Origin: a virus
DNA: 36,479 nucleotides
IMG/VR virus record: IMGVR_UViG_3300018083_000021
Reading direction: 5' to 3' (one strand)
The translations under genes and the position numbers were made by a program. The notes beneath the pieces are model-generated. The model was not told the origin of the DNA. It saw nothing but the letters and a program-made list of their open reading frames with translations, and made no database searches. Of this stretch, positions 18,034 through 35,453 are shown piece after piece (position 1 is the stretch's first letter; the number at the start of each line of letters is the position of its first letter).

Positions 18034-18552
18034 ATGGCCAAAATTGAAAGAAAATTAGTTTGCAATAAACATGGTATTTGCGACTTTAGTTTATCTGGAA
18101 AAATCAAACAAAGATGGAAATGTAAAAAGTGCATATATGACTCTTCATTTAAATATAGACATGGTCTTAAAGATAGGGCAATTTTATATAAGGGAGGAAA
18201 GTGTGTTAAATGTTCTTACAATAAATGCAAGCGGTCTTTGTCTTTTCATCATTTAGATCCAACTGAGAAAGATTTTAATATTGTTGCTTGCACCAGCTGG
18301 GAGAAAATGAAAGCAGAGATAGATAAGTGCATCTTGGTATGTATGAATTGTCATTTGGAAATACATGCGGAAGAAGATAAAAAAACTTTTGAATTACAGA
18401 AATATTATCTGAACAAAAAAGAAGTTTCCTTAATAAACCAAATGCTTATAAATGACAAATTATCTTTTGAACATGCGCGGGAATTGTTAGAAGAAAAAGA
18501 AGGGAAAAGGAACAAGAAAACCAATTTAAGATTGGAACTTTATGGAAATTAA
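18034..18552 (+). CDS. HNH endonuclease with N-terminal Cys-rich zinc ribbons
   Basis: The motif is SLSFHHLDPTEKDFNI...LVCMNCHLEIH (HNH). Several CxxC pairs lie N-terminal to it. The gene is free-standing on the opposite strand to the early arm. Confidence 0.8.
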   Translation: MAKIERKLVCNKHGICDFSLSGKIKQRWKCKKCIYDSSFKYRHGLKDRAILYKGGKCVKCSYNKCKRSLSFHHLDPTEKDFNIVACTSWEKMKAEIDKCILVCMNCHLEIHAEEDKKTFELQKYYLNKKEVSLINQMLINDKLSFEHARELLEEKEGKRNKKTNLRLELYGN

Positions 18553-19952: not shown

Positions 19953-20026
19953 TTTATAATTTGGGCATTCTTGCAATGAGGATGCCCCCACGATTTGAGC
20001 TTAGGTAGGTTAGAGGCTTGGGGGTT

Positions 20027-20350
20027 TTATTTATTGTGCTTAAAAAAACTTCTAATTGCATCAGCAAAACCATGAGCTGCTTCTTTTCTCCAGCCTGTCA
20101 ATTGACCTGTGTCATGGAGAGACAAGCCCAGCATCATCCAAATCTTAAATACCTCATCTTGTGTAAATGGGCGATTTTCTTTGCCGTTATAAGAAGCCAC
20201 AGTAGCTTGAGAATAACTACCGTCATCAGGAAATAGTACGGAAATTGCGAGCAGCCCATCCGTCAATCCTTTATCATCTGCCTCATCTTTTGAATATCCT
20301 TCCGGTTTATCCTCAATATTAATGTCGTAACGTAGTTTGTAACTATGCAT
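20027..20350 (-). CDS. Hypothetical protein (107 aa)
   Basis: ORF in the early arm, 3 nt downstream of the preceding gene. Confidence 0.55.
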   Translation of the reverse strand: MHSYKLRYDINIEDKPEGYSKDEADDKGLTDGLLAISVLFPDDGSYSQATVASYNGKENRPFTQDEVFKIWMMLGLSLHDTGQLTGWRKEAAHGFADAIRSFFKHNK

Positions 20351-20353
20351 TTA

Positions 20354-20587
20354 TTAACCTTGTTTTAATCCCATTTTAACAGCGAATTGATCTTGTATTT
20401 TCTTCGCCACTTCTTCTATGTCGCCACTAATAACGCTATTTCCGCAATCTATGTATGTATTATCATTCAAGACCTGCATAATAACATCTATCATCCTAAA
20501 GCCATTGCATATGATGTTAACTGGTATTTTAGATAGGTCAACCATAACAGTACCTTGATAACCCGGATTAATATTTAAATCTGACAT
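20354..20587 (-). CDS. Hypothetical protein (77 aa)
   Basis: ORF in the early arm with GAGGA upstream. Confidence 0.55.
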   Translation of the reverse strand: MSDLNINPGYQGTVMVDLSKIPVNIICNGFRMIDVIMQVLNDNTYIDCGNSVISGDIEEVAKKIQDQFAVKMGLKQG

Positions 20588-20666
20588 TCTATATTCCTCA
20601 TTAGAGCTTATCAGAGATTAAATTCCCAATCCCTCAAAGCCCAACATTTATGCGCCATCTTATCAT

Positions 20667-20936
20667 TTATTCCCTGTAAACCTCTTCATAACTTTCTATA
20701 AAAATATCTGATTTACATGGGTAAAGTTCGCCTTTTATGCCTTTTATAACATAATCACCAATGTTTACATGCATAGTTCCTTCAAGAGTTCGGATTAAAA
20801 GATAGGTTTTATTTGATGACGGCAATAAATGCTGAACAACCTTATTTGGTTCGTCATCCATCCAAGACGGCCAATCATCAAATCCATACCTAAAAGCTTC
20901 AATCACTAATGGTCGCTTCATAAATTTACGAGACAT
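20667..20936 (-). CDS. Conserved-looking phage protein of unknown function (89 aa)
   Basis: I recall KRPLVIEAFRY...TLEGTMHVNIGDYVIKGIKGELYPCKSDIFIESYE as a recurrent small phage protein pattern. AAGGA lies 10 nt upstream of ATG 20936. The track start 20993 is a GTG that leaves only a 20-bp divergent gap. Confidence 0.5.
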   Translation of the reverse strand: MSRKFMKRPLVIEAFRYGFDDWPSWMDDEPNKVVQHLLPSSNKTYLLIRTLEGTMHVNIGDYVIKGIKGELYPCKSDIFIESYEEVYRE

Positions 20937-21013
20937 AAATCGATTATCCTTATATTCTTTGAGAGCTGATAATATAATGGTATATTCCTCCACGCAAATT
21001 AAAATTAGTGAAC

Positions 21014-21250
21014 ATGAAAGAAATTCGCAGGATGCAACGGGGAGTTCTTAAGGAAATTAAGAACGTACGCCGTTTTTTTGATTATATGGAACGCACGGTT
21101 AAACAGGGCAATCCTGAGCATATACAGCGGGCATATATGTTTTTAACGCATATGACATTGCTCATGAACGAAGGGCAATTAACACCGGATAGCATCGCGC
21201 TTGATGTTGAGCTTGCGCAGGAATTACAGAATTTAGTATCAGAAGAATAA
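21014..21250 (+). CDS. Hypothetical helical protein (78 aa), first gene of a plus-strand island
   Basis: ATG 21014 lies 2 codons into the track ORF. The gene is co-oriented with the secreted-protein gene and directly upstream of it. Confidence 0.5.
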   Translation: MKEIRRMQRGVLKEIKNVRRFFDYMERTVKQGNPEHIQRAYMFLTHMTLLMNEGQLTPDSIALDVELAQELQNLVSEE

Positions 21251-21296
21251 ACGGAATTGATTAATAGCAGGATGCATTTTGAAAACGGAAGAAAAC

Positions 21297-22694
21297 ATGA
21301 AATTAAAATTATTAACAGCAAGCATCCTAATATTATCTAGCAACATCTATGCCCGTGGTGTCGTTTCAGGCGATGTAATGGGGCGTGACATGCTTATTAA
21401 AGAGATCCCAGGAGCCGCAAGAATTGGACACCTAGCCCTTGCAACAGGTGACAATATTTTCCAAACCACAGATGTAACAATTGAAATGGAACCAAATGGC
21501 GATAATTCTATTGTATGGGGGAGCGTGAAGGGATTTAAAAGCAAAGCAAGATATTGGGGGAGCAGAAGCGGGCTTATAACAAATAGCAAACTTATGTATC
21601 TAGCATTGCATGCTGCAAAATTGCAAAGCTTCTGGTGTCCTGAGTATACAGCGACAACATACTGGCGCATAGGAGACGGGTGGTTTGATGAGGTTCAGAG
21701 GCCACATCCGACTGTATGCGGTAAATTTCGGTGTGATGTCTTTGTGGGATACGTGATGGGGGTTGGCGGCGCGACACAAATACTTAATAACAGAATTCAA
21801 TTGCCTTATAATGCATTTATGACCTTTCCTGTAGATAATGGCAGTTTTGCTGCTGAGAAGGCTATGCCTAATGAGACTGCCGAAGACCCGGACAGAGCAA
21901 CTAAGTTTTTAGAAGTTACTGTAGATGATTTAAATAAAATGACGCTTGAAGAATTCTCAGTGTTCGGAAGTTTCGATCCCGCCATTACTCCTGAGAAGAT
22001 AGTGGAAAAACAATGGGAACTCCTTGCTAATCCTAATGTCAAGGATTATATAAAATGGGTATTGATTGACTTACGCTCAATGTCTAAAGTAGAAGATACG
22101 CCACAAAAATTCATTGAGATATTCGAGAAATCTACAAGCGCATTCGTTAAAACCAGAATTGCGTCTGGCATCATGGGGTTTTATCAAAGCAATTGGGATG
22201 AGATACAATCTAATTCTAATTTTGAGAATATAAAGGGCTTCTTTACTAAAGCCGTAACCCATGAAAAGCCCGAGCATGAAATGAGTTCGTATTTAATTCG
22301 AGGATTTATAGACTTTCATGACGCGAGCGAAATTGATCGCAATTTGAATTTAATTGAAAAACATTTGGCGACAGTTACCAATAAGTCATTAATTGGCTTG
22401 CAGTTTGAATTAATTAGAAAGTCTCCTGAATTGCAAAATAAATTTCTTCCTGCGTCTATTTCTGTACTGAGAAAAGCAAACGATACCGAGCTTGATAGCA
22501 AGTTTTTTTATTACCTAAATCATGGAGTGAAGATTATTGAAGACAAGACTCTCCGAAAAGATATCAGAGATTTTATTTCCGAGAAGAATACAGCGTACGC
22601 AAATAAAGCTTTCTCAGGCGATAAAGGTCTTGCAGAATTCCATGCAAATGGAGCACGAAAAGACATGGATGAATTGATGTTGAAGCTTAAGTAA
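21297..22694 (+). CDS. Secreted protein (465 aa): Sec signal peptide, a possible permuted papain-like (NlpC/P60-YiiX-type) N-domain and a helical C-domain
   Basis: ATG 21297 has GGAAG upstream. The signal peptide is MKLKLLTASILILSSNIYA|RG. A His motif (IGHLALATGD) precedes a Cys motif (GKFRCDVFVGYV), in the order seen in permuted papain-like amidases. That domain call is weak. Confidence 0.6.
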   Translation: MKLKLLTASILILSSNIYARGVVSGDVMGRDMLIKEIPGAARIGHLALATGDNIFQTTDVTIEMEPNGDNSIVWGSVKGFKSKARYWGSRSGLITNSKLMYLALHAAKLQSFWCPEYTATTYWRIGDGWFDEVQRPHPTVCGKFRCDVFVGYVMGVGGATQILNNRIQLPYNAFMTFPVDNGSFAAEKAMPNETAEDPDRATKFLEVTVDDLNKMTLEEFSVFGSFDPAITPEKIVEKQWELLANPNVKDYIKWVLIDLRSMSKVEDTPQKFIEIFEKSTSAFVKTRIASGIMGFYQSNWDEIQSNSNFENIKGFFTKAVTHEKPEHEMSSYLIRGFIDFHDASEIDRNLNLIEKHLATVTNKSLIGLQFELIRKSPELQNKFLPASISVLRKANDTELDSKFFYYLNHGVKIIEDKTLRKDIRDFISEKNTAYANKAFSGDKGLAEFHANGARKDMDELMLKLK

Positions 22695-22727
22695 ATATTA
22701 ACGGGTTGCGGCGCGCTCGTTGCTAGC

Positions 22728-22755
22728 AAAAAGACACCACTAGCTTAAGGGTGTC
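22728..22755 (-). terminator. Rho-independent terminator for the minus-strand gene block, nested in a larger inverted repeat between convergent genes
   Basis: On the minus strand, GACACC-(11 nt)-GGTGTC is followed by TTTTT. An outer 8-bp inverted repeat is TGCGGCGC (22707-22714) / GCGCCGCA (22758-22765). A further hairpin, GAGTCGG/CCGACTC (22773-22799), spans the stop codon at 22782. Confidence 0.55.
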
Positions 22756-22781
22756 ATGCGCCGCACTTATATGAGTCGGTA

Positions 22782-23063
22782 TCAATTTGTAACCGACTCA
22801 ATCTCTAATTTATAATTTTTTATATCGAATTTTTTTTCAATTATTCCAATAATCGTGTATGTTGCAATTGCCATCCCATTTAATCTGTCTAAAGATGCGG
22901 TAGAGCCTATACCACCGTTTAGGTTTAATTCACGTTGTATTTCGGAGCATTGGTTTAAGTCATTTCGATACATCAATTCCAAAAATGCTAGCAACTCAAT
23001 TATTCTGTCTTGAAATGCTAGTAATTCTGGAATTGCATTTTTATAATCTATAGTTTTGCTCAT
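22782..23063 (-). CDS. Hypothetical protein (93 aa)
   Basis: The start ATG directly abuts the stop codon of the upstream small ORF (TAGATG). Confidence 0.55.
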   Translation of the reverse strand: MSKTIDYKNAIPELLAFQDRIIELLAFLELMYRNDLNQCSEIQRELNLNGGIGSTASLDRLNGMAIATYTIIGIIEKKFDIKNYKLEIESVTN

Positions 23064-23216
23064 CTATTTTTCCTCTTTCTCAAGTTTATCAACACGAATT
23101 TCTAGTTTTGTAAGTCTTTCTTCTTGGCTTGCAACCTGTTTTTTTAAGTCATGGGCTTTGAGAGAAATAGCAATTAAAGCGCCACATAAAAATATTGTTG
23201 TTATATTATTCCGCAT
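23064..23216 (-). CDS. Small membrane-anchored coiled-coil protein (50 aa), missing from the track
   Basis: The product is MRNNITTIFLCGALIAISLKAHDLKKQVASQEERLTKLEIRVDKLEKEEK. Its ATG overlaps the upstream TAA (TAATG) and its TAG abuts the next ATG, so it exactly fills the gap between two genes. Confidence 0.65.
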   Translation of the reverse strand: MRNNITTIFLCGALIAISLKAHDLKKQVASQEERLTKLEIRVDKLEKEEK

Positions 23217-23500
23217 TAGACGTTCTCATTTTCCAAAATCTCCCAATCTTCAGACATTACCAAAAAAAGATTTAATTGCGGAAAATTTCCATGTTTACAA
23301 GGTTTTTCAAACGCTTTTCCGCCAATCATATCTGGATGTTGAACATCGCCCTTCATTTTAACCACGGACAGCCAATAATCCTCTCTGGGCATACCAGGCA
23401 ACCCAGCTTTACAAGCCATTAAATAAATATCATCATCAAAACTTGGATGTGTTATCTTTGCACCTGTTCTCATTTGTATTAATGCTTCTTCGAATTTCAT
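23216..23500 (-). CDS. DUF2829 (Tad2-like) protein, copy 1 (94 aa)
   Basis: It begins MKFEEALIQMRTGAKITHPSF and ends ...LVMSEDWEIL. I recognise both as the DUF2829 N- and C-terminal signatures. Confidence 0.6.
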   Translation of the reverse strand: MKFEEALIQMRTGAKITHPSFDDDIYLMACKAGLPGMPREDYWLSVVKMKGDVQHPDMIGGKAFEKPCKHGNFPQLNLFLVMSEDWEILENENV

Positions 23501-23511
23501 AACATTCCTTT

Positions 23512-23715
23512 TTAGACGCTCTCACTTTCCAGATTAGACGGATTTTCTTTATCTGGCTCGCCGCAGAAATAGCCCCATGAAGTCCAAGAGGTAATTTTAT
23601 CTGGATTATCGATAATTGAATCAAGATATCGCTTACGTTGTTCTTTTGTCATCTTCCTACCACATTCATTAGTGCAATTTGGTGATGCGCAGAATGTTTT
23701 ATCAAGGAATGACAT
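23512..23715 (-). CDS. Small Cys-rich protein (67 aa)
   Basis: The product starts MSFLDKTFCASPNCTNECGRKMT and contains ...GYFCGEP. GGAG lies 7 nt upstream of ATG 23715. Confidence 0.5.
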   Translation of the reverse strand: MSFLDKTFCASPNCTNECGRKMTKEQRKRYLDSIIDNPDKITSWTSWGYFCGEPDKENPSNLESESV

Positions 23716-23905
23716 TCCCATTCTCCATAATTTCGCATTTATCGATCAGATAATCCCGCATATGTTCACGACTACAAAAATGCAATGTTGGGAAAGTAAT
23801 TGATCCCATATCTAAATTTACTGAAAAAATACCGTAAACACCTAAGAGGCCTAACTTTAATTCTTTATTACAAAAATCACATATTGTTATTGTTTTTTGG
23901 GTCAT
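23702..23905 (-). CDS. FCS-like zinc-finger protein (67 aa)
   Basis: It carries ICDFCNKEL and ...LHFCSREHMRDYL. It is a paralog of the next gene upstream. Confidence 0.55.
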   Translation of the reverse strand: MTQKTITICDFCNKELKLGLLGVYGIFSVNLDMGSITFPTLHFCSREHMRDYLIDKCEIMENGNVIP

Positions 23906-24114
23906 TCATGAGCCTTAAAATATTCTCTTAAACAACCAGTACCGCAAAAATGCAAATCATTAGGAATAGGAGGATAAATCATCATGTCTGTAACTTCTCC
24001 CGAATGGCACGGTATTCTTTCTGAGGAAATACAAACCCTATAGTCTATGGAATTCCCGGTGGTTGTTAGGTTGCTTGAGCAATGATCACAAAGACATGTA
24101 TTATTAATCGTCAT
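23902..24114 (-). CDS. FCS-like zinc-finger protein (70 aa)
   Basis: The product starts MTINNTCLCDHCSS and contains ...LHFCGTGCLREYF. The internal ATG 24114 avoids a long overlap with the upstream gene. Confidence 0.55.
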   Translation of the reverse strand: MTINNTCLCDHCSSNLTTTGNSIDYRVCISSERIPCHSGEVTDMMIYPPIPNDLHFCGTGCLREYFKAHE

Positions 24115-24499
24115 CTTTACACCCATTTTTAACCCATTGAATTGCCCTATTATGGCCTTCTTTAGCCTCAACCCATGTCGAATAACGCTCCATATAACCA
24201 TCTTCTCCAGCTTCATCGAAAATCATAGTTTCGAATATTAAAGGCTCGCCACCAAAGTAATTATGGTCTAATCCCAGAAATACTGTAGATATCATCTTGT
24301 TATCATAATGATCGTGACCCACTAAACGCCTGTCTCTTCCATCTGTGTTTTCGTATAAATCAGCCCATTCTTGCAAGCTGCATTTAACTGCATTATTATC
24401 TTTATCTAGTGTGTAATACAAAAATGTTGATATATATGCGCTTCCGATACCCTCTCCAGAATTCACGGTAGTTGTAACGCCTTTAGAATATCTTTTCAT
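24104..24499 (-). CDS. Conserved phage protein of unknown function (131 aa)
   Basis: ATG 24499 overlaps the upstream TAA (TAATG). The motif GGEPLIFETMIF...RYSTWVEAKEGH recurs in small phage proteins as I recall. The track's 175-aa form overlaps the upstream gene by 133 nt. Confidence 0.55.
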   Translation of the reverse strand: MKRYSKGVTTTVNSGEGIGSAYISTFLYYTLDKDNNAVKCSLQEWADLYENTDGRDRRLVGHDHYDNKMISTVFLGLDHNYFGGEPLIFETMIFDEAGEDGYMERYSTWVEAKEGHNRAIQWVKNGCKDDD

Positions 24500-24780
24500 T
24501 AAACAACCATCCCTACACCCACCCCAATCAAAATCATCTCCCATGAAGTCATCTTTATATCGAAATGTGACAATATCACATAAAGGATTATCCAGACACC
24601 AGCTCCTCTCCACCACTTGCTCCATGGACATTCAAGGACAATTTCAAATAGCGCATGGATAAATTTCTTTTTAAATATAAAATGTCCCGGAATTCCAAAC
24701 TCTTCATTACATGCTATATGTAAGTCAGCTTCTTTTTTTGTTTTAAATCTCTCATCACAGATGCATGTGTATCTTTTCAT
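24499..24780 (-). CDS. Membrane protein (93 aa) with an N-terminal CxC...H motif and two C-terminal hydrophobic helices
   Basis: The N-terminus is MKRYTCICDERFKTKKEADLHIAC. The hydrophobic segments are GAGVWIILYVILSHF and MILIGVGVGMVV. Confidence 0.5.
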   Translation of the reverse strand: MKRYTCICDERFKTKKEADLHIACNEEFGIPGHFIFKKKFIHALFEIVLECPWSKWWRGAGVWIILYVILSHFDIKMTSWEMILIGVGVGMVV

Positions 24781-25163
24781 TCAACAACCACCCAATCATC
24801 AGCCATTAAATCAAGAAACTCCGGCACAAAAAAGAATTCTTCCATTGAATGGTAAACAAGGTCTTTTTCTTCTCTGTCATAATAAATAAAGCCATCGCTC
24901 CATTCTTTTAATCTTGCTTTCTCGCCTTCATACAAAAGGTCTGCTATTTCATGGAATACATATTCTCTATTATCACCTTCTATAAACCACCCATCACACA
25001 TAAATATGGAGCTGTCATAGTTGTACATACGTATTGCGGAGCGATACGCCTTAACTTCATCTTTGGGAATTCTCGCCATAGATAGATACATCTTCTCTGT
25101 CCATCTGCTCCTTGAAACCTTTTTGCCTGCGTTAAGCTCGGTTATTGCTTCACTGAATTTCAT
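24777..25163 (-). CDS. DUF2829 (Tad2-like) protein, copy 2 (128 aa, extended)
   Basis: It begins MKFSEAITELNAGKKVSRSRWTEKMYL and ends ...LDLMADDWVVVE. Confidence 0.6.
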   Translation of the reverse strand: MKFSEAITELNAGKKVSRSRWTEKMYLSMARIPKDEVKAYRSAIRMYNYDSSIFMCDGWFIEGDNREYVFHEIADLLYEGEKARLKEWSDGFIYYDREEKDLVYHSMEEFFFVPEFLDLMADDWVVVE

Positions 25164-25172
25164 GCGCTTTCC

Positions 25173-25469
25173 CTAATGATCCATTGATAAAACACGTGCT
25201 AATAATGGCTGAATAAATTTAACAAACTTTTCTTCAAGCATTTCTATTGGGTACTTATAGGCTACAAGCGATCCCTGCTTAAGAGTAATATCCAGCATCC
25301 AATTACCGCGCCCCAAAGGACAGTCTTCTTTAGATCTCAAGTAATATTCTACGCTCTTAATATTCGGGCATAATTTATCTAAGTCCAGATCATCAGCAAT
25401 TGTTACATTGTCCTCAGGTATGCTGTCGCGGTTATATGCCTGAACCTTTACAATACCTATCTTCATCAA
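25173..25469 (-). CDS. Hypothetical protein (98 aa)
   Basis: ORF in the early arm with no recognised motifs. Confidence 0.55.
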   Translation of the reverse strand: MMKIGIVKVQAYNRDSIPEDNVTIADDLDLDKLCPNIKSVEYYLRSKEDCPLGRGNWMLDITLKQGSLVAYKYPIEMLEEKFVKFIQPLLARVLSMDH

Positions 25470-25475
25470 TAACCC

Positions 25476-25697
25476 CTATACTAATCCAAATAAATGAAGC
25501 GCCACAGGAATAATTACAGAACCCAAAACAATACCAATGATTAGGTTTAGCTTGTTGTCCATGTGATCAAATCTCTTTTCTATACTTAAAAATTTCTCAT
25601 CATATTTTTTATCATTAAGTTTGAATATCTCACCATGAATCCTTAATTGAACCTCATGTTCTATGTAATTCTCTTCTGACTTGCTTAAGTTAGCCAT
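25476..25697 (-). CDS. Tail-anchored membrane protein (73 aa) with an XhlA-like architecture
   Basis: A charged helical N-part is followed by a single C-terminal TM segment (LNLIIGIVLGSVIIPVALHLFGLV). The similarity is in architecture only. Confidence 0.45.
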   Translation of the reverse strand: MANLSKSEENYIEHEVQLRIHGEIFKLNDKKYDEKFLSIEKRFDHMDNKLNLIIGIVLGSVIIPVALHLFGLV

Positions 25698-25720
25698 TTT
25701 ATCTCCTGACTATTTATAAA

Positions 25721-25789
25721 ATCACCCTGACGGAATCGAACCGCCATCTGTCGCTAACAGGCGACACTCTACCATTGAGCTAAGGGTGA
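25721..25789 (-). tRNA. tRNA-like gene with a non-canonical anticodon arm. The possible anticodon is GUU (Asn).
   Basis: The minus-strand sequence is TCACCCTTAGCTCAATGGTAGAGTGTCGCCTGTTAGCGACAGATGGCGGTTCGATTCCGTCAGGGTGA. The acceptor stem is TCACCCT/AGGGTGA. The D arm is GCTC-AATGGTA-GAGT. The T arm is GGCGG-TTCGATT-CCGTC. The anticodon arm folds only as a 6-bp stem with a 6-nt loop (CTGTTA), or a 5-bp stem with an 8-nt loop. The gene is 68 nt long with no encoded CCA. Confidence 0.6.
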
Positions 25790-25799
25790 ATAACCTGTA

Positions 25800-26303
25800 T
25801 TAAAAAGGTACATCATCATCCAAAACATCTTCCTGAAACTTAGGAATTGGCACTACATTAGCAGTAGGCTGTGCCACATTATCGCGCTTTAAATAATCTT
25901 CAATCTTATTCTTGTCAGGATAGCATGACCCAAAAGGCTTCCCATTTAGCCTATCTTCTGGAATTGGCTTTCCAGCGTCTATCCCGACCTTAACCCTGAC
26001 GCGCTTGCCAGTTATGGTTTCCGAACATAGTTTTCCAGCCTGATATGTCGGCATCATTCCAGCAGACCCCGCGCAGTGTACAATCTTCCACATCATGGCT
26101 TTCATGAACACCAGAAAGTCGCGTACTTCATGTGCTTTTCCTTCCGCGTCAAATACCGTGACGGTCATATCCATCATGTCATTGCCACTAGACGACACCT
26201 TGTCTTGTGAGGCACTTATGATTGCGTCATATTCGCCCTCTTTTATTAATTGAAATCTTTCTGCCATTGCCTCTTCTTCACTCATCGCTTGATATGCAAA
26301 CAT
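25800..26303 (-). CDS. DUF669-family protein (phage ssDNA-binding-type partner of Sak4-like ATPases)
   Basis: The N-terminal pattern is FQLIKEGEYDAIISASQDKVSSSGNDMMDMTVTVFD, and the gene lies directly downstream of an AAA_24-type ATPase. The acidic tail DDDVPF resembles an SSB tail. Confidence 0.65.
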   Translation of the reverse strand: MFAYQAMSEEEAMAERFQLIKEGEYDAIISASQDKVSSSGNDMMDMTVTVFDAEGKAHEVRDFLVFMKAMMWKIVHCAGSAGMMPTYQAGKLCSETITGKRVRVKVGIDAGKPIPEDRLNGKPFGSCYPDKNKIEDYLKRDNVAQPTANVVPIPKFQEDVLDDDVPF

Positions 26304-26305
26304 CC

Positions 26306-27151
26306 TTATTCTCCTTTTATTTTACTTTTTAAGTGGTCAATGCATTTTTGTATCGCATCGCGTGGCATTTCTTCCCATCGGTCACTGCTTGCTTTGTCTA
26401 ACCATTTTTGATACATTTCTGGCGGCACTTTAATTAAGTCTATAAGTCGCAGAAGCTCGGCCACTTGCTCAACTGTCGCAAGTTCTTGCGCAATTGCATC
26501 GCGCTCCAATACTTCACGCCCGTAACGTTTCGCAATCTCATCGTATGAAAAAGGGAAACTTTCACTATCTGGAAACTGCTCTATACGTGACTTTTTAATC
26601 AATCCTACGCGGTCTGTTCCACGCTTTTGTATTTCAAATACCAAATCAAATAAGTAATCCAGCTTTTTATAACAATCAAATGTCTGTCCTAAAACCGCCA
26701 AATTCTTACCGTACTCATTCTTGCTATGTGACGTGATAATAACGTTCATATCTAATCGGAACAACAGGTTTAAAAGCTGCTTCATGCGCTTATTAGCTTC
26801 GCCATAATGACGACCAAATTCACTGCCTACCTTAATTTCTGCCTTCTCAAGAAGGTCATTATAAAGCAGCGTTAGAGAATCTATAATCAATGTCTTGTAA
26901 TCGTGTTGAGTTGTTAGAAGCTCTCGAACTTCGTTAACCATCTCATCAAAATCAACGGTCATAAGTACCGCGCCATCTACTTTTTCAATCTGCCTTACAT
27001 ACTGCGGCTTATTAGTCGACCCCTCAGTATCAATAATATAAGGCTTCGGAAACTGAATAGCTGCCATCGTTTTACCGACCCCGGCAGAACCATAAAATAA
27101 GCACTTAAGACGCTGTTCAATCATCGCTGGTTTCTTTGCTTTTAAAGCCAT
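26306..27151 (-). CDS. AAA_24 / Sak4-like RecA-fold ATPase (recombination)
   Basis: The Walker A motif is FYGSAGVGKT and the Walker B motif is KTLIIDSLT. The segment PYIIDTEGST is typical of AAA_24. GAGGA lies upstream. Confidence 0.75.
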   Translation of the reverse strand: MALKAKKPAMIEQRLKCLFYGSAGVGKTMAAIQFPKPYIIDTEGSTNKPQYVRQIEKVDGAVLMTVDFDEMVNEVRELLTTQHDYKTLIIDSLTLLYNDLLEKAEIKVGSEFGRHYGEANKRMKQLLNLLFRLDMNVIITSHSKNEYGKNLAVLGQTFDCYKKLDYLFDLVFEIQKRGTDRVGLIKKSRIEQFPDSESFPFSYDEIAKRYGREVLERDAIAQELATVEQVAELLRLIDLIKVPPEMYQKWLDKASSDRWEEMPRDAIQKCIDHLKSKIKGE

Positions 27152-27192
27152 GTCTACATCCTCACTAGTTTAATTATGCCAATTTAATGGCT

Positions 27193-27251
27193 GCGGTATA
27201 TCCCCGATGCGCACGTGTTGTGCGCATAAGTGCGCATAAGGCATATACCGC
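27193..27251 (-). promoter_or_regulatory. Structured intergenic element: an outer 9-bp stem enclosing mutually exclusive inner hairpins and three TGCGCA palindromes
   Basis: The outer stem is GCGGTATAT (27193-27201) / ATATACCGC (27243-27251). ATGCGCAC (27207-27214) can pair with GTGCGCAT at 27220-27227 or at 27230-27237. GTGCGCATAA is tandemly duplicated. The element lies between the stop of the 27251 gene and the SD of the ATPase gene. Confidence 0.5.
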
Positions 27252-27748
27252 TAATCATCTAGGTCTTGTTCTCGTCTCTCTTCCTCAAGAGCTATTAAAT
27301 ATTCATCACAAGCTTCATCGAGCAATTCTTGCAACGAGCTTGCATAATAAGACACAATATTAAAACGCACTACATCAGCAAATTTAACTCTATTGCTCAC
27401 ACTATCGTCTTTAAGCATCGCAAGAAGCGCACATGTATACGCATTATCAATCAACATATCACTGCCATGTACACATTCGCTCAACTCTCTACCCGTGAAC
27501 TCTATATAAAGCCGTGCAAGCTCTCCCTGCTCATCTTCTGGCAAATCATCAAGATTCAATGTGTAAGATAAATCATCATAATTTGCGTATGTTGAAACCA
27601 ATTCTTCAATGTAATTAGATAACCTTTTTTCATGGCTCATAAATGTCATTTCCTTGACAAATTCCACGCCCAAATCGAACGGGTCATCATTCCTTGATGA
27701 AAGTTGTTGATTTTTAATATTCTCTTCTGCTAATCTTTGTTGGTTCAT
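27251..27748 (-). CDS. Acidic early protein (165 aa), function unknown
   Basis: It is the second gene of the early arm, visibly rich in D/E, and ends EEERREQDLDD. Confidence 0.55.
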   Translation of the reverse strand: MNQQRLAEENIKNQQLSSRNDDPFDLGVEFVKEMTFMSHEKRLSNYIEELVSTYANYDDLSYTLNLDDLPEDEQGELARLYIEFTGRELSECVHGSDMLIDNAYTCALLAMLKDDSVSNRVKFADVVRFNIVSYYASSLQELLDEACDEYLIALEEERREQDLDD

Positions 27749-27779
27749 GTTTATATCCTAGTCCGATATTACAGTACAT

Positions 27780-27811
27780 TGAGGCGCACAGATTGCAGTC
27801 CGAGCGCCTCA
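27780..27811 (-). terminator. Hairpin between the RHH gene and the acidic-protein gene, a possible attenuator or weak terminator
   Basis: TGAGGCGC (27780-27787) pairs with GCGCCTCA (27804-27811), giving an 8-bp stem and a 16-nt loop. No clear U-run follows. Confidence 0.3.
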
Positions 27812-27819
27812 CCTAATTC

Positions 27820-28002
27820 TTACGTGTTATTTTTCTTATCAAGTCTCGCCTTGTACTTCGTCAAACACTTAACTACAGTTGCACCCATCGGTTCGCCTGT
27901 CGTGAACGAATGAAGCCTCAAAAAATCCCACAGCTCAGAAGGCATTCTTAAACTAAAATTCTTCAAGATACTCCCATCAACAATCTTTGGTCTACCCGCC
28001 AT
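27820..28002 (-). CDS. Ribbon-helix-helix (CopG/Arc-like) DNA-binding protein, first gene of the early arm
   Basis: KNFSLRMPSELWDFLRLHSFTTGEPMGATVVKCL fits a beta-strand plus two-helix RHH layout. The gene borders the divergent regulatory hub. Confidence 0.55.
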   Translation of the reverse strand: MAGRPKIVDGSILKNFSLRMPSELWDFLRLHSFTTGEPMGATVVKCLTKYKARLDKKNNT

Positions 28003-28292
28003 AATCTACCCCTTTAAATTTATTGTTATTTGCTGAATGAAACAATTATTGCATTAATTAATTCAGTGCGCAAGCATTTTTAATAAAAAATAGAAAAATA
28101 TCTTAATTAAAAGTTAGAAGTGTATTATTATGTTTGGAATATTGAAGATTTGACTTTGTAAAAGAAGATTTATAGTGCAGAATACTGATTAGTAGCAGCA
28201 AGGTACATCATGTTTCGCTTGCTGCGCGAAATTTATATTGATTGAGTGACACCGACCAAAGTTGAACTCAACCATTTTTACTACCGGATGCC
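28003..28292. promoter_or_regulatory. Divergent early regulatory hub (AT-rich, 290 bp)
   Basis: On the plus strand, TTGACT (28150-28155) is followed 15 nt later by TATAGT (28171-28176). TTAATTAA palindromes lie at 28054-28061 and 28103-28110. A hairpin, GCAGCAAG/CTTGCTGC, spans 28195-28225. Confidence 0.4.
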
Positions 28293-28316
28293 TTGTTTTG
28301 GCGAAGTTACGGCTTG

Positions 28317-29372
28317 ATGCATCCAACATCAGAGGCAATTATAGCGATGAATGAGCACGACTACAACCACCCTTTATATATAAATACTCCTTACTTTGTT
28401 TTACAAGACGAAAAACTATCCTTCTTTAACAAATTCTTATTCTCTTTATTCTGGAGTTTTTCTTTATCTGGAAAAAAAATAAAGACCAGCAATGACTATC
28501 TGGCCACATTATTTCAAGTAGATTCCTCGTATATTGGAAAATGCATAAAAGAGCTGGAGGATATGGGTTATATAAAAAGATTAACATTAAAATACAAAAG
28601 AATTATCCAAGTATTACACATCCCATATGATCCAATAGAACGCGGTGACATGAATTTAGATCACCGAGAACCAACAGATTGCAAACAAAATGAACTGCAT
28701 ACTCTTAAAGTAGTACCCAGTATAAAAAATATACTGCCTCCTCCAGATACGTCTTTTATGTCCTCCAATACGAGGATCGAACCTCCGCCAATTGGAGGAA
28801 CAGATATTAAAGCTTATAATAAAGATAATAAAGATAAAAGAAGCCCCGAAACGCCTTCGGCTAATTCGGTGGATAAAATTTCATTTTTAACTCAAGAAGA
28901 AATGATAAATGATAATCCTCACAACATTGACCCAAAGATATTTGAAGAATGGCTTTTTATTCGTAAAAGGAAAAAAGCCCCTCTCACTCACACAGCATGG
29001 AATAGAACCAATAAGGTTCTAACGAAGCTCGTTAACAGCGGTCTAGATGCCATTGACTGCTTTGAACGCATGGTTGCTAACGGATGGCAAGGCATGGAGT
29101 ACAAGTATTTCGAACAAGAGATAAAATCAACCACAGTTACAAGCAAAGCAGATACAGACAAGGAAATACGAGCACGTGAACTTAAAGCACAAGAGATGAA
29201 ACGACAAGAATTCGAAACGTCCAATGGGATTATGAAAAGCATCACTCATACAATAAATTTTGAGGCAGAGCTTAGACGTGCCGAGGAAGAGCGCCAAATA
29301 CTTGGAATGGATAGACTTGAATACCACAATTACACAATGCAACAACATAAACAAAAAACCATGACAGGATGA
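28317..29372 (+). CDS. Putative replication initiator / replisome organiser (N-terminal winged-helix, C-terminal DnaD/DnaT-like region)
   Basis: The wHTH-like N-terminal segment is SNDYLATLFQVDSSYIGKCIKELEDMGYIKR. The C-terminal segment is IFEEWLFIRKRKKAPLTHTAWNRTNKVL...NGWQGMEY. The start is uncertain: TTG 28293, ATG 28317 or ATG 28347. Confidence 0.5.
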   Translation: MHPTSEAIIAMNEHDYNHPLYINTPYFVLQDEKLSFFNKFLFSLFWSFSLSGKKIKTSNDYLATLFQVDSSYIGKCIKELEDMGYIKRLTLKYKRIIQVLHIPYDPIERGDMNLDHREPTDCKQNELHTLKVVPSIKNILPPPDTSFMSSNTRIEPPPIGGTDIKAYNKDNKDKRSPETPSANSVDKISFLTQEEMINDNPHNIDPKIFEEWLFIRKRKKAPLTHTAWNRTNKVLTKLVNSGLDAIDCFERMVANGWQGMEYKYFEQEIKSTTVTSKADTDKEIRARELKAQEMKRQEFETSNGIMKSITHTINFEAELRRAEEERQILGMDRLEYHNYTMQQHKQKTMTG

Positions 29373-29375
29373 CAT

Positions 29376-29606
29376 ATGAATAAAGGGCTATGGATAGCCA
29401 GAAAGAACCACCTGTGCTGCATGATCAAGATTATATCTGATAACTATGGTGGCGATGAACGAGAGTGGCTTAAAGGCCATTGTGTGGAGCTTTTAGGGAA
29501 ATACCAAGGAGATGACATTGAAACGCCTATTGCGGTTTATCAGAAAATTATTGATTCGCACATACATACAGTTAACGGATGGACAAAATGTAAAGGACGA
29601 CAATGA
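29376..29606 (+). CDS. Hypothetical protein (76 aa)
   Basis: The ORF is tightly packed and overlaps the next gene by 4 nt. Confidence 0.55.
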   Translation: MNKGLWIARKNHLCCMIKIISDNYGGDEREWLKGHCVELLGKYQGDDIETPIAVYQKIIDSHIHTVNGWTKCKGRQ

Positions 29607-29986
29607 TAAAGTTACCGATTCCATCGGAAAACCAAGAACAACGCGCGCTCGTAAAGTGGTTAAGCTACCACCCAATTGTTCGTAACTTTTATTGTAAAAA
29701 TAACAATGAAGGCAAACGCACCGAACAACAAGGGTTTAATTTGAAGTTAATGGGGTTGCGACCGGGTGTCAGTGATATCCTGATTTACTATCCAACGAAT
29801 ACTTATCATGGGTTGTTTTTGGAAGTGAAGCGCAATAAAAAGTACACGCCGTCTGAGATGAAAACAGCTACATGGATTGCGCAAGAAGAATTCCTAAAAT
29901 TGGTAAAAAGTGTTGGATATCATGGGGCTGTGTGCTATGGTTGGGAAGAAGGTAAAAAAATTATCGAAGCTTATCTCCTGACGTAA
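29603..29986 (+). CDS. VRR-NUC domain nuclease
   Basis: The motifs ENQEQRALVKWL, ...GLRPGVSDILIYY and ...GLFLEVKR match the E..Q...v.wl / G...G.PDl / lE.K layout of VRR-NUC. Confidence 0.7.
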   Translation: MIKLPIPSENQEQRALVKWLSYHPIVRNFYCKNNNEGKRTEQQGFNLKLMGLRPGVSDILIYYPTNTYHGLFLEVKRNKKYTPSEMKTATWIAQEEFLKLVKSVGYHGAVCYGWEEGKKIIEAYLLT

Positions 29987-30029
29987 TTTTATTGTTGTGC
30001 CGTTCATAGTAAGACTCCTTGTTAGTTTT

Positions 30030-30052
30030 AAGCCCTAGAAATAGGGCTTTTT
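30030..30052 (+). terminator. Rho-independent terminator
   Basis: AAGCCCT-AGAAAT-AGGGCTT is followed by TTT. It lies between the convergent genes ending at 29986 (+) and 30055 (-). Confidence 0.7.
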
Positions 30053-30054
30053 AG

Positions 30055-30252
30055 TTATCTGTCCAGCAAATCATCAATAGCCTCTTGTTCTGTACTTCCT
30101 TCTCCTGACGGGCATCCATGCGATGTTTCATAGTCAATTGGCGTTGGGTCATAATCATCATAGGTTGCCACCCATGGACAACATCCCCAAAAAGCCCTGT
30201 CATGACAATAATATGTGTGTATTGTTTCGTTGTTTATTATGTGTATGTTCAT
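30055..30252 (-). CDS. Small Cys/Trp-rich protein (65 aa), paralog A
   Basis: It shares the pattern C..R.[FY]W.C..W[VI]A.[YF]D[DN]YD..PID[YH]ET...P.G.G.TEQEAID[DN]LL with the next gene. Confidence 0.6.
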   Translation of the reverse strand: MNIHIINNETIHTYYCHDRAFWGCCPWVATYDDYDPTPIDYETSHGCPSGEGSTEQEAIDDLLDR

Positions 30253-30269
30253 CGTTTGCCTCTTTATCG

Positions 30270-30476
30270 TTAATTATTAAATGGACTGCCTTCGGAAGAA
30301 TTCCCAGCCAGTAAATTGTCAATGGCCTCTTGTTCGGTTCTTCCAAAACCAATTGGATCGGCACTAGGTGTTTCATGGTCGATAGGAATCCCATCATAAT
30401 TATCAAAAATGGCTATCCATCTATCGCAATTCCAATATTTGCGTGAATTATCGCATTTAGTAATAATACGATTCAT
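30270..30476 (-). CDS. Small Cys/Trp-rich protein (68 aa), paralog B
   Basis: The product starts MNRIITKCDNSRKYWNCDRWIAIFDNYDGIPIDHET and contains ...GFGRTEQEAIDNLL. GGAG lies 8 nt upstream of ATG 30476. Confidence 0.6.
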   Translation of the reverse strand: MNRIITKCDNSRKYWNCDRWIAIFDNYDGIPIDHETPSADPIGFGRTEQEAIDNLLAGNSSEGSPFNN

Positions 30477-30478
30477 AT

Positions 30479-30646
30479 TTATTTCTCCGGGAAAATTACA
30501 CAATTCTTTAAATGTATTAAGTCTTTTGGATTATCATCTATTATTTTATAAAATTCCTCTTTGCTAAGTCCAGAATGCAATTTATTCAATGCATCCTCTA
30601 TATTTCTTTCTGCTCTATTTATGTCGTCTAGTATGAAGTGGTTCAT
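30479..30646 (-). CDS. Small ORF (55 aa), first gene of the minus-strand islet, missing from the track
   Basis: The product is MNHFILDDINRAERNIEDALNKLHSGLSKEEFYKIIDDNPKDLIHLKNCVIFPEK. Its stop lies 2 nt before the next ATG. Confidence 0.5.
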   Translation of the reverse strand: MNHFILDDINRAERNIEDALNKLHSGLSKEEFYKIIDDNPKDLIHLKNCVIFPEK

Positions 30647-30789
30647 CTTTATCTCTCTATGTTGTAATTAAGTAATGTATGCATTATTGCATTAAATAAT
30701 ACACGGGTCAACAGTTATTTTTAATTATTTTGATTTATTTTTAAATCGTGTGCTAAGCTTAAGATAACTAAGACAAAAGGATGTTGTTA

Positions 30790-31203
30790 ATGCCAAAGTT
30801 TAGTCAGGCTTCCTTCTCGAAGCTCTCAAGCTGTCACATAGATTTACAAGTATTGTTCTACGAGGTCATTAAAAACTTCGATTGCACGATACTGGAAGGT
30901 CATCGGGATGAAAAAGAACAAGAAGAAGCCTTTCTTAAAGGCAACACAAAGATTCATTGGCCATATGGCAAGCACAACAAGATTCCGTCAATGGCTGTAG
31001 ATGTAATCCCATATCCTGTCAATTTCGATGATGCGAAGCTTCATATTTGGTTTGGTGGTTATGTACAGGGTATCGCACAAAGATTGAAGGATGAGGGAAA
31101 AATGAGCCATTCAGTGCGTTGGGGTGGGGCATGGGATGGATTAGGTAAACTAGATAGACCAGGGCAATTGAATGATGCGGTGCATTTCGAACTTGTGGAG
31201 TAA
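30790..31203 (+). CDS. Endolysin, peptidase M15 (VanY / L-alanyl-D-glutamate peptidase-like)
   Basis: The motifs are GHRDEKEQEEAF, ...SMAVDVIPYP and ...NDAVHFEL (H-x6-D ... D-x-x-H zinc ligands). AAGG lies 9 nt upstream of ATG 30790. The track start is 30781. Confidence 0.75.
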   Translation: MPKFSQASFSKLSSCHIDLQVLFYEVIKNFDCTILEGHRDEKEQEEAFLKGNTKIHWPYGKHNKIPSMAVDVIPYPVNFDDAKLHIWFGGYVQGIAQRLKDEGKMSHSVRWGGAWDGLGKLDRPGQLNDAVHFELVE

Positions 31204-31226
31204 ATAGTAGTAGCGGAGGGTTAGCT

Positions 31227-31445
31227 ATGAAAAAGCTGCGTAAGTACGTTAAATCTCGGCGTGATATTGTAATAACTGCGCCATTACTGTTATGTTTCGT
31301 TACATTCTTATTTAATTTTGTGTCTGCGATTAAGAAGGGTAATATTGATAGCACGGCATTTAGCCAGCTTATGACGACTGTTGATGGCTTTGGTACAGTG
31401 TGCAGTGCTATAATAATGCTAGTAATGCGTCGTAAAAAAAAGTAA
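31227..31445 (+). CDS. Putative holin (72 aa, two TM helices, basic C-terminus)
   Basis: The TM segments are VITAPLLLCFVTFLFNFVSAI and GFGTVCSAIIMLVM, followed by RRKKK. The gene lies directly after the endolysin. Confidence 0.55.
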   Translation: MKKLRKYVKSRRDIVITAPLLLCFVTFLFNFVSAIKKGNIDSTAFSQLMTTVDGFGTVCSAIIMLVMRRKKK

Positions 31446-31481
31446 TATTCGATTATTCAATGCATTAAAGGATTAATGACT

Positions 31482-31937
31482 ATGGCAGGAAAGCCTAATC
31501 CACCAAAGGTCTATGCCACAGAACCTGTAGGCAGGCCATCTAAATTCACTCCAGAAATACGCAATGGTATCATTCATGCAGTTTCAAGACGCGTCCCTTA
31601 TTGTTTAGCCGCCGAGGCCAACGGTATATCAGAGCCAACGTTATATGCGTGGATTAACATCGGCAAGCAGCATTTAAAGGACGGAATTGAGTCAGATTAT
31701 ACAATGTTTATTAAGTCCTTAAAAGTTGCTGAAATGTCCCGCATGATGGAGCATACGGATAAAATAGCCGATCATGTCGATAAATGGCAAGCTGACGCAT
31801 GGCTTCTTGAGCGTAGATGGCATAAGGACTGGAGTGCAAACGCACAACTCAATGAACTCAATCAAAAACTTGATACCCTCTTAGACGGTGGAACTAATGA
31901 AAAACTCAGAAAAAAAGAAGATGATGAAGAAGCATGA
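31482..31937 (+). CDS. terS: Terminase small subunit (HTH type)
   Basis: GRPSKFTPEIRNGIIHAVSRRVPYCLAAEANGISEPTLYAWINIG matches the GRPtkyTPE...HTH...Tly.W signature of many small terminases. AGGA lies 9 nt upstream of ATG 31482. The track start is 31476. Confidence 0.65.
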   Translation: MAGKPNPPKVYATEPVGRPSKFTPEIRNGIIHAVSRRVPYCLAAEANGISEPTLYAWINIGKQHLKDGIESDYTMFIKSLKVAEMSRMMEHTDKIADHVDKWQADAWLLERRWHKDWSANAQLNELNQKLDTLLDGGTNEKLRKKEDDEEA

Positions 31938-32027
31938 GAAGAAAATGCATGAACATCTTGAGAAGCACTTGCATGAGAAGCCAAAGGCTATGAAATCATC
32001 AAAAAAGAAAGACCGCGGATATTAATA

Positions 32028-32258
32028 GTGAATGATTTTAAAGCGGGCGATGATGCGTGGTATTTTACATTTCCTGAGGACGGCTGTGGTGGATATGATA
32101 TTGATGACATAGAGCTTGGCGCAACTTATAATCTGCTGCAAGTTACTATAAACCGTAATCCATTTTTGTCCTTTGCCTATAAAAGTAAGGACGAGGCATT
32201 TAAAGCCATGAGAGAAAAAATAGATAAACTGGAACAATCAAAACCAAGGGAGTGGTAA
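32028..32258 (+). CDS. Hypothetical protein (76 aa), GTG start
   Basis: The ORF has no in-frame ATG near its 5' end and is packed with its neighbours. Confidence 0.45.
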   Translation: MNDFKAGDDAWYFTFPEDGCGGYDIDDIELGATYNLLQVTINRNPFLSFAYKSKDEAFKAMREKIDKLEQSKPREW

Positions 32259-32259
32259 A

Positions 32260-32448
32260 ATGGGTGCTAAATACACATCAAACAAGCCAGACGGATACAT
32301 GCGTACACGCAATAATATCTATCTTGAGCGTGAATCTTTACAGCAAACAAGAACATTTGCAGAAGCCGGAGCAAGTCGTAACTTGCCAGCCCAGAGCAAA
32401 GAAAATTATGGCAAGGATGATATAAGCGGGAAAATATTTAACAAATAA
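32260..32448 (+). CDS. Hypothetical protein (62 aa)
   Basis: The ATG lies 1 nt after the previous stop, with GGGAG upstream. Confidence 0.5.
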   Translation: MGAKYTSNKPDGYMRTRNNIYLERESLQQTRTFAEAGASRNLPAQSKENYGKDDISGKIFNK

Positions 32449-32457
32449 GGATTAATT

Positions 32458-32601
32458 ATGCCATTAGTCAAGGGCGCTAAAGCTCGCACAAAGAAAGGCT
32501 TCTCAACTAACGTTAAGCGTGAGATGGAGGCGGGGAAAAAGCATTCTCAAGCTGTCGCTATTGCTTACTCAGAAGCTGGTGAGAAGAAGAAGAAAAAGTA
32601 A
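32458..32601 (+). CDS. Small basic protein (47 aa), missing from the track
   Basis: The product is MPLVKGAKARTKKGFSTNVKREMEAGKKHSQAVAIAYSEAGEKKKKK. AAGGA lies upstream. I recall the K.SqAvAIAySEAGk motif as a recurrent small phage/bacterial protein. Confidence 0.55.
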   Translation: MPLVKGAKARTKKGFSTNVKREMEAGKKHSQAVAIAYSEAGEKKKKK

Positions 32602-32651
32602 CACCCATTGACCTGTCACGGAAGACTCAAGCATTCACAAAGGACTTAACC

Positions 32652-32837
32652 ATGGCTGTCATACAAAATACGTGGATAGAAAAGCAAAAGAAGAAGAAAG
32701 AACTAGAAACCGCGCCTGCATTTGAAGCAGCCCCCACAGACAACTGGCTACCCATCGATACTAAGAAGCCTGTCAAACGCCATACAAGTGCCTCACGTGG
32801 CACATACAAGCACTCCCTGAGAGGCATTCGAAAATGA
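32652..32837 (+). CDS. Hypothetical basic protein (61 aa)
   Basis: An ATGA overlap links it to the next gene. Confidence 0.5.
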   Translation: MAVIQNTWIEKQKKKKELETAPAFEAAPTDNWLPIDTKKPVKRHTSASRGTYKHSLRGIRK

Positions 32838-35168: not shown

Positions 35169-35171
35169 ATC

Positions 35172-35432: not shown

Positions 35433-35453
35433 ACAGAGAAAGGAGAAGTACAG

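Follow-up and report, generated by a model that had tools for sequence, protein, structure and literature searches.

SPO1 Tad2 (gp34.65; PDB entries 8SME, 8SMF, and 8SMG), the founding Thoeris anti-defence 2 sponge, belongs to the Tad2-like protein family (Pfam ID PF11195, formerly DUF2829). Tad2 homologs together inhibit CBASS, Pycsar, and Thoeris types I, II, and IV, using pockets located at two different interfaces (PMC12393519; PMC10680739). HgmTad2 (AcrIIA7) and SptTad2 (PDB entries 8KBI to 8KBM, 8WJC, and 8WJD) belong to the same family and are dual sponges for glycocyclic ADP-ribose (gcADPR) and cyclic dinucleotides (CDNs). The variable β2-β5 region of HgmTad2 can build a second ligand pocket (PMC10680739), and the CDN pocket of this type involves a β2-β5 insertion of 35 to 41 residues and the residues R31, S47, F70, and N85. 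Fusions of Tad2 to a different sponge domain, Tad2-Acb4 and Tad2-PF21825, are known and have led to the discovery of new sponges (PMC12265669), and phages with several redundant anti-signalling genes are on record (10.64898/2026.06.04.730250). Here we describe three Tad2-like genes, referred to as p1, p2, and p3, in the IMG/VR virus record IMGVR_UViG_3300018083_000021; "the window" is the whole stretch of 36,479 nucleotides (nt) that was analysed. These genes encode four Tad2-like domains, because p2 contains two of them in tandem.

23216-23500, minus strand: p1, a divergent Tad2-like protein of 94 amino acids (aa); Pfam match sub-threshold, assigned by profile and fold comparison
24777-25163, minus strand: p2, a 128-aa two-domain Tad2-like protein (PF11195, 50.6 bits)
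35454-35711, plus strand: p3, an 85-aa minimal Tad2-like protein (PF11195, 27.6 bits)

The closest known proteins are SPO1 Tad2, MoTad2/ModTad2, and HgmTad2/SptTad2. With SPO1 Tad2, the window proteins share the PF11195 family, the N-terminal M-x-F-x-E-A-L...G and C-terminal A-x-D-W motifs, a small acidic chain, and, in all domains but that of p1, the stacking Trp of the β1-β2 loop. They differ from it in the replacement of N26 in every domain and in an altered or deleted W73/T78 region. Moreover, p3 and each p2 domain lack about 25 residues by comparison, p2 joins two domains in one chain, and p1 has H/F in place of R/W plus a His/Cys insertion. This conserved insertion of p1 (about 25 residues, with H55, C68, and H70) sits in the same part of the fold as that of HgmTad2 but has no detected sequence similarity to the CDN-binding insertion, whereas p3 and the p2 domains show the opposite trend, with almost no insertion and cores of about 61 to 63 residues. 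Like the Tad2-Acb4 and Tad2-PF21825 fusions, which are thought to widen the range of blocked signals (PMC12265669), p2 carries two sponge-type domains per polypeptide; however, it fuses Tad2 to Tad2 and not to a different sponge domain. A limited literature search found no mention of such a homotypic tandem.

Detection and Family Membership

In a Pfam-A scan, p1, p2, and p3 match no family other than PF11195, whose gathering score is 25 bits. The match of p2 has an E value of 2.8e-13 and falls into two stretches, that of p3 (E = 4.3e-6) covers profile positions 1 to 72 of 73, and that of p1 stays under the threshold (14.7 bits; E = 0.047) and is confined to residues 1 to 27. Five hidden Markov models (HMMs) built from the homolog families were run on all 585 stop-to-stop open reading frames (ORFs) of the window. 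They recover only p1, p2, and p3, all other ORFs having E values of >0.1, which indicates that the genome contains exactly three Tad2-like genes. All three products are small and acidic, as is SPO1 Tad2 (pI 4.4 to 5.0). Their common motifs are M-[KL]-F-x-[ED]-A-[LI] at the N terminus and [SA]-[ED]-D-W at the C terminus.

An earlier note on this DNA had singled out the same three ORFs and attributed them to DUF2829. The ORFs are real, with p1 and p2 on the minus strand (the note gave no strand) and p3 on the plus strand, and the motifs that it quoted are present: MKFEEAL..GAKI...SEDW in p1, MKFSEAI..GKKV...ADDW in p2, and MLFQDAL...ADDW in p3. The family assignment holds as well, through the Pfam threshold for p2 and p3 and through profile-profile and fold evidence for p1.

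Tandem Architecture of p2

The two domains of p2, designated p2N and p2C, are each recognized by PF11195 and by hhalign.

24978-25163, minus strand: p2N, N-terminal Tad2-like domain (residues 1 to 62)
24780-24962, minus strand: p2C, C-terminal Tad2-like domain (residues 68 to 128); stop codon at 24777-24779

Scanned alone against PF11195, residues 1 to 65 score 34.1 bits and residues 64 to 128 score 23.8 bits, the latter over profile positions 3 to 73 of 73. An exhaustive search of 1.84 billion cluster representatives finds 163 relatives of p2 (E ≤ 0.001), nearly all of them 120 to 135 aa long and aligned end to end. The alignment of 140 of these sequences displays a repeat with an offset of 67 residues (F3/F70, A6/A73, L10/L77, G13/G80, K15/K82, and W21/W88), and an almost invariant Trp closes each half (W59 and W124). 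The domains are separated by a linker of 5 to 10 residues, and gaps occur in no more than 1% of the sequences at positions 59 to 70. The family profiles of the two halves align to each other over 60 columns with an hhalign probability of 98.8% (E = 7.2e-17). The N- and C-terminal halves also align over the full length to the p3 family (97.6% and 98.1%, respectively) and to SPO1 Tad2 (95.9% and 97.0%). Family profiles are required to reveal the duplication: BLASTP of one half of p2 against the other yields only a weak 21-residue match (E = 0.047).

The PF11195 matches of the separate halves, the 67-residue repeat, and the half-versus-half alignment rule out a single domain with an insertion. 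Thus, what the earlier note had taken for a large internal insertion in the 128-aa copy is a tandem duplication, and these comparisons identify p2 as a covalent tandem of two predicted minimal Tad2-like domains. The same architecture is common to about 140 cluster representatives (clusters at 50% identity), and tblastn of p2 against 50,697 GenBank phage records gives no match.

The Minimal Protein p3

p3 consists of a core (residues 1 to 66, with about 63 core residues) followed by a variable acidic tail. Of its 39 homologs, 27 have a precomputed PF11195 match, and the family profile aligns to SPO1 Tad2 over the full length with a probability of 94%. Invariant in the family are R18, W21, G26, Y27, a VWKI stretch that includes W38 and K39, and P-x-PNAGN.

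The Divergent Protein p1

Among 5.8 billion clustered proteins, p1 has 16 homologs (37 to 84% identity), only one of which carries a precomputed PF11195 match. The family is near-invariant at H18, C30, H55, and H70, and C68 is found in most members, within K-P-C-K-H-G. The usual R-x-x-W is replaced by H-P-x-[FL] (H-P-x-F in p1 itself), and the His/Cys-bearing insertion spans residues 51 to 74, in a part of the fold known to vary. In the HMM scan of the window ORFs, p1 is hit by the models of both p2 halves (N half, E = 3.3e-8; C half, E = 1.3e-6). hhalign pairs it with these halves at 97.5% and 95.4%, with a further value of 87.7%, in alignments limited to about 30 N-terminal columns.

The AlphaFold2 model of p1 has a mean predicted local distance difference test (pLDDT) score of 75.3 and shows an N-terminal helix, an antiparallel sheet, and a C-terminal helix ending in D-W. 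In a Foldseek search of PDB, its three best matches are SPO1 Tad2 chains, with 8smf at the top (probability, 0.97 to 0.99; template modelling score, 0.56 to 0.69, and 0.58 to 0.69 when taken for the target; E = 0.05), and the next match has a probability of just 0.06. In BFVD, about 29 of the top matches are Tad2-like/DUF2829 or unnamed proteins of similar size. On the basis of the HMM, hhalign, and fold comparisons, p1 is accepted as a predicted Tad2-fold protein.

The p1 model also matches three separate proteins in each of the Lactobacillus phages Semele and Iacchus, by fold only, so that several Tad2-like copies per phage are not unique to the genome studied here. The matched proteins of Semele are all 117 aa long, and those of Iacchus are 161, 122, and 242 aa long; both phages may carry multicopy, possibly two-domain, Tad2-like genes. 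In contrast to them, the present genome has one copy that is a late core gene of its clade and another that is a tandem.

Comparison of the Ligand Pockets

SPO1 Tad2 contacts gcADPR through W25, N26, W73, T78, and D79; I63 and T65 make further contacts, and D67, H71, and S76 keep water molecules in place (10.1101/2023.05.01.538930). HgmTad2 uses W21/N22 and S90/T92/D93, and the W21A/N22A variant is its gcADPR-site mutant (PMC10680739). The SPO1 Tad2 sequence (from NC_011421) was aligned to the family profiles by hhalign, which gives the following equivalents; for p1, the alignment is weak (probability, 35%).

SPO1 W25: W21 in p3, W21 in p2N, W88 in p2C, F21 in p1
SPO1 N26: T22 in p3, T22 in p2N, S89 in p2C, D22 in p1
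SPO1 W73: inside a 13-residue deletion in p3, region reduced in p2N, F112 in p2C, not assigned in p1
SPO1 P75: inside the deletion in p3, region reduced in p2N, P114 in p2C, P74 in p1
SPO1 D79: D57 in p3, region reduced in p2N, D118 in p2C, not assigned in p1

By these alignments, including the weak one of p1, none of the four domains keeps the full W25/N26/W73/T78/D79 set. Three domains, p3, p2N, and p2C, retain the stacking Trp that corresponds to W25, a residue with >90% conservation across the p2 family and no exception in the p3 family. In p2N, where the region is reduced, W73, P75, and D79 have no clear equivalent. The 13-residue deletion of p3 removes the equivalents of D67, H71, W73, and S76 and also affects the T78 segment. 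The invariant PNPNAGN-F-I-F of p3 aligns with the SPO1 segment EPVFGNIIF and probably corresponds to the β3-β4 loop and the β4 strand. Accordingly placed, R18, W21, W38, K39, and P-x-P-N-A-G-N of p3 fall into the β1-β2 loop and, presumably, the β3-β4/β4 elements; these elements form pocket walls according to the Tad2 structure paper. We read this pattern as a probable conserved functional surface at the place where Tad2 binds its ligand, yet one that differs from the canonical gcADPR site. Tad2 homologs are known to accommodate very different signals at two distinct interfaces (PMC12393519), and the pattern would be compatible with sponges of other specificity.

Genome Layout and Distribution Among Relatives

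An exact direct overlap of 123 bp joins the ends of the window (1-123 is identical to 36357-36479), indicating a circular assembly; the genome is complete, measures about 36,356 bp, and has a G+C content of 39.9%. It belongs to an uncultured phage with a P22-type portal. Several genes in addition to p1, p2, and p3 define the two loci.

33016-34581, plus strand: terminase large subunit (TerL; PHROG phrog_2 and synteny), upstream of a small-ORF island that ends with p3
35802-36479, continuing over the circular junction to 1629, plus strand: portal gene, 5' part (phrog_156 matches 7-1629 from profile position 165 onward)
26306-27151, minus strand: Sak4-like ATPase (PHROG phrog_124/phrog_378 for the ATPase and DUF669/SSB-like pair), heading the leftward early operon
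25800-26303, minus strand: DUF669/SSB-like gene (PHROG and Pfam DUF669), which with the ATPase heads the operon that holds p2 and p1
23064-23216, minus strand: 50-aa ORF, with a 1-nt overlap with the p1 stop codon; travels with p1

The plus strand carries, in this order, a replication O-like gene, the endolysin, the terminase small subunit (TerS), TerL, four small ORFs (the last of which is p3), the portal, and the head and tail genes; p3 ends 90 nt before the portal start. The minus-strand operon runs leftward from 27748 to 22782 through the Sak4-like ATPase, the DUF669/SSB-like gene, small ORFs, p2, small Cys-rich ORFs, and p1, and it diverges from the replication genes. The ORFs downstream of p1 and p2 are overlapped by 1 and 4 nt, respectively. 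The placement of p1 and p2 in an early arm, already proposed in the earlier note, agrees with this arrangement, and by analogy with the lambdoid layout, the label appears reasonable.

The neighbourhood of p3 is constant. Among 80 p3-anchored loci, TerL lies upstream on the same strand in all 57 eligible ones, and a portal reading frame opens 13 to 162 bp downstream in 71 of 71. A second sample, selected by TerL at 70 to 92% identity and hence independent of p3, gives the same picture: a Tad2-like ORF is found between TerL and portal in each of the 60 relatives that hold both genes. Across these 60, the length of the TerL-portal island varies from 619 to 2,747 bp, and the p3 core is strongly conserved while the remaining ORFs of the island are variable. 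Thus, p3 belongs to the core of the clade, whereas p1 and p2 occur sporadically.

The distribution of p2 was followed in an ATPase-anchored sample of 80 IMG/VR loci (62 to 93% identity), of which the 51 with at least 3.5 kb of downstream sequence were counted. A p2-like tandem gene is found in 36 of these 51, at 0.46 to 2.6 kb downstream of the ATPase, and a p1-like gene in none. When the early-operon ORFs of 52 genomes (the window included) are clustered, the SSB-like gene is the single core gene (52/52) and the p2 family is the commonest accessory one (37/52). The rest of the operon, from 0 to 5.5 kb downstream of the Sak4-like ATPase (loci L102 to L181), is highly mosaic, with dozens of small-ORF families that are each present in 3 to 21 of the 52 genomes. 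The p2-p3 pair is the normal state of the clade. At least 17 contigs occur in both the ATPase-anchored and p3-anchored sets and carry both a p2-type gene and p3.

p1 is a rare, horizontally moving variant. Together with the 50-aa ORF, it recurs in a 3.4-kb contig (L253, positions 125-561) with 87% nucleotide identity over 419 bp. The flanks of the pair differ, which suggests movement as a two-gene cassette. No p2- or p3-type gene lies within 10 kb in 15 IMG/VR loci anchored on p1, and more distant p1 homologs are known from other phages that have a P22-type portal, where they lie between the TerS and TerL genes in the company of small ORFs. Of the three copies, p3 is therefore a core gene of the clade, p2 a frequent accessory gene, and p1 a rare cassette that is mobile. 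The earlier note had considered three copies unusual. This is true of p1, which is rare, but the p2-p3 pair is the ordinary complement of the clade and multicopy Tad2-like phages exist elsewhere, so that the rarity had been overstated.

Predicted Function and Alternative Explanations

The best reading of these data, to which we give a probability of about 0.5, is that p1, p2, and p3 are small-molecule sponges that form oligomers and have non-canonical pockets, with p2 as a dimer forming a pseudo-tetramer. The proteins would oligomerise in the manner of SPO1 Tad2, a tetramer of two V-shaped dimers with pockets at the protomer interfaces, and would sequester immune signals that are small and derived from nucleotides. 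The polar gcADPR contacts of SPO1 Tad2 and HgmTad2 are not kept, and the ligands of p1, p2, and p3 would therefore probably not be held in the canonical mode for 3' cyclic ADP-ribose (3'cADPR). The p2 homodimer would mimic the tetramer and, being built of two non-equivalent domain types, would have non-equivalent pockets, an idea that comes from the tandem architecture and the gap-free linker. A sponge role is plausible for all three proteins; we are more confident of it in p2 and p1 than in p3, where the portal-adjacent position makes it least secure. The proposal of the earlier note that the copies may be tuned to different signalling nucleotides is weakly supported, the set of gcADPR contacts being incomplete in all four domains. 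Its other proposal was that the domain may have another role, and this may be so, above all for p3, fixed as it is upstream of the portal.

Several observations weigh against the sponge reading. None of the four domains has an Asn at the position of N26 (they have T, T, S, or D instead), and the equivalent of W73 is F in p2C and falls inside the deletion in p3. Within the p2 family, the positions corresponding to N26 are variable and the D79 equivalent is just 40% conserved. p1 has neither the Arg nor the Trp, it aligns weakly to SPO1 Tad2 past residue 30 (probability, 35%), and its family profile finds no match among PDB sequences. The AlphaFold2 model of p2, made from a three-sequence alignment, has a pLDDT score of only 38.7, which leaves the pseudo-tetramer idea without structural support. 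In the early operon, a Pfam search with 10 representative accessory proteins found no known anti-defence family: the matches are to Metallophos, the DnaB N-terminal domain, DUF6378, and a sub-threshold glycosyltransferase. Finally, p3 is a core gene of a late packaging operon, unlike the sporadic p1 and p2.

This last point leads to the possibility, which we regard as rather unlikely, that the Tad2-like fold, at least in p3, serves another role, such as a packaging, portal, or head-assembly factor or a housekeeping binder of a host or phage metabolite. Such a role would fit the universal presence of p3 in the TerL-selected relatives, its fixed place between TerL and portal, the conservation of its 63-residue core next to variable neighbours in an island of changing length, and the loss of the SPO1 segment bearing D67, H71, W73, S76, and T78. 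Yet the conserved residues of p3 map onto pocket-lining elements of Tad2, and a limited literature search found no Tad2-like protein with a morphogenetic role. Islands near TerL can also hold accessory cargo, as shown by the p1-type genes that lie among small accessory ORFs around the terminase genes of related P22-like phages. Late expression of a sponge would be sensible too, since the triggers of Thoeris can be late structural proteins. A bolder view, improbable in our estimate, is that p3 would be a Tad2-fold protein fixed in the packaging/portal module of the whole clade, either as a sponge that is made late or delivered with the virion and forestalls signalling in the next cell or as a fold recruited to a morphogenetic or ligand-sensing task. 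The p2 tandem would then form a natural pseudo-heterotetramer whose two non-equivalent pockets serve two different signals.

Two further explanations are much less probable. It is very unlikely that p1 is no working relative of Tad2 and only an unrelated or decayed small protein that shares the N-terminal helix motif. The sub-threshold Pfam match over residues 1 to 27, the span of about 30 columns in the alignments to other families, and the lack of a PDB match by sequence would agree with this. However, the 16 homologs are conserved along the whole length, including the C-terminal PQLNLFL-MSDDWE, which indicates that the gene is under selection, and the whole-chain model retrieves SPO1 Tad2 ahead of all other PDB entries and almost only Tad2-like proteins from BFVD. 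Still more doubtful is that one or more of the copies are anti-CRISPR proteins like AcrIIA7, a DUF2829 protein first reported as a Cas9 inhibitor. Weak matches (E values of 0.09 to 0.5) link the p3 family profile to 8kbi ("Inhibitor of Type II CRISPR-Cas system," which is HgmTad2) and 9kzr (AcrIIA7), but the matches to the Tad2 entries are stronger, and Cas9 inhibition by HgmTad2/AcrIIA7 or other tested Tad2 homologs was not reproducible in the work of Li et al. (PMC10680739).

Other Genes and Searches

The accessory families of the early operon include a 194-aa serine-recombinase-like protein (by eye; 11 of the 52 genomes), a metallophosphatase, a protein with the DnaB N-terminal domain, and DUF6378; for most of the families, Pfam gives no match. 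Between p1 and p2, at 23512-24216 on the minus strand, the window encodes three small Cys-rich proteins of 69, 67, and 104 aa with no significant Pfam match. Two of them share C-x2-C ... L-H-F-C-x3-[CH]-[LM]-R-[DE]-Y and resemble paralogous zinc-ribbon or FCS/TRASH-like fingers. The 69-aa type is found in 21 and the 67-aa type in 4 of the 52 genomes.

A tRNA-like gene (25721-25789, minus strand) lies between the DUF669/SSB-like gene and the next ORF and scores 49.1 bits against the Rfam tRNA model (gathering score, 29). The anticodon arm (stem GTCGC/GCGAC, loop CTGTTA) lacks one loop base, and ARAGORN reports no anticodon. Among all fetched loci, only the closest relative (L102; 94% identity) has such a gene too. 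On the plus strand, convergent with the early operon, lies a 471-aa ORF (21279-22694) with a signal-peptide-like N terminus, MKLKLLTASILILSSNIYA. No PHROG matches it, a homolog with about 69% nucleotide identity is found at the same position in L253, and it may encode a moron or exclusion protein. An HNH endonuclease gene (18034-18552, plus strand; phrog_2255, E = 4e-24) is located amid the tail genes.

Megablast of window positions 20000-36479 (16.5 kb) and tblastn of p1, p2, and p3 against the 50,697 GenBank phage records gave no match and thus no cultured relative. A scan of genomes for a host returned only three contigs of metagenome-assembled genomes, one of them a phage-sized contig of 34 kb binned as Planctomycetota, and no host was assigned. 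The promoter and terminator scan of 22400-28400 was uninformative, with promoter-like sites fewer than expected from shuffled sequence and terminator-like sites about as many.

Implications

Taken together, the comparisons above confirm the family assignment, correct the architecture of p2 to a tandem, and show the rarity of three copies to have been overstated, while the function of the proteins is a predicted one. Few families of phage immune-signal sponges are as widespread and as functionally plastic as Tad2. Because no domain of the four keeps the canonical gcADPR contacts, a PF11195 match alone does not justify the label "anti-Thoeris." The His/Cys variant seen in p1 may represent a metal-dependent form of the Tad2 fold. 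The Tad2-Tad2 tandem of p2 would show how a homo-oligomeric sponge breaks its symmetry and evolves different pockets within one particle. The fixation of p3 by the portal gene across the clade questions the view that this domain always marks a dispensable anti-defence gene and makes p3 a clean test case for late or virion-linked counter-defence.

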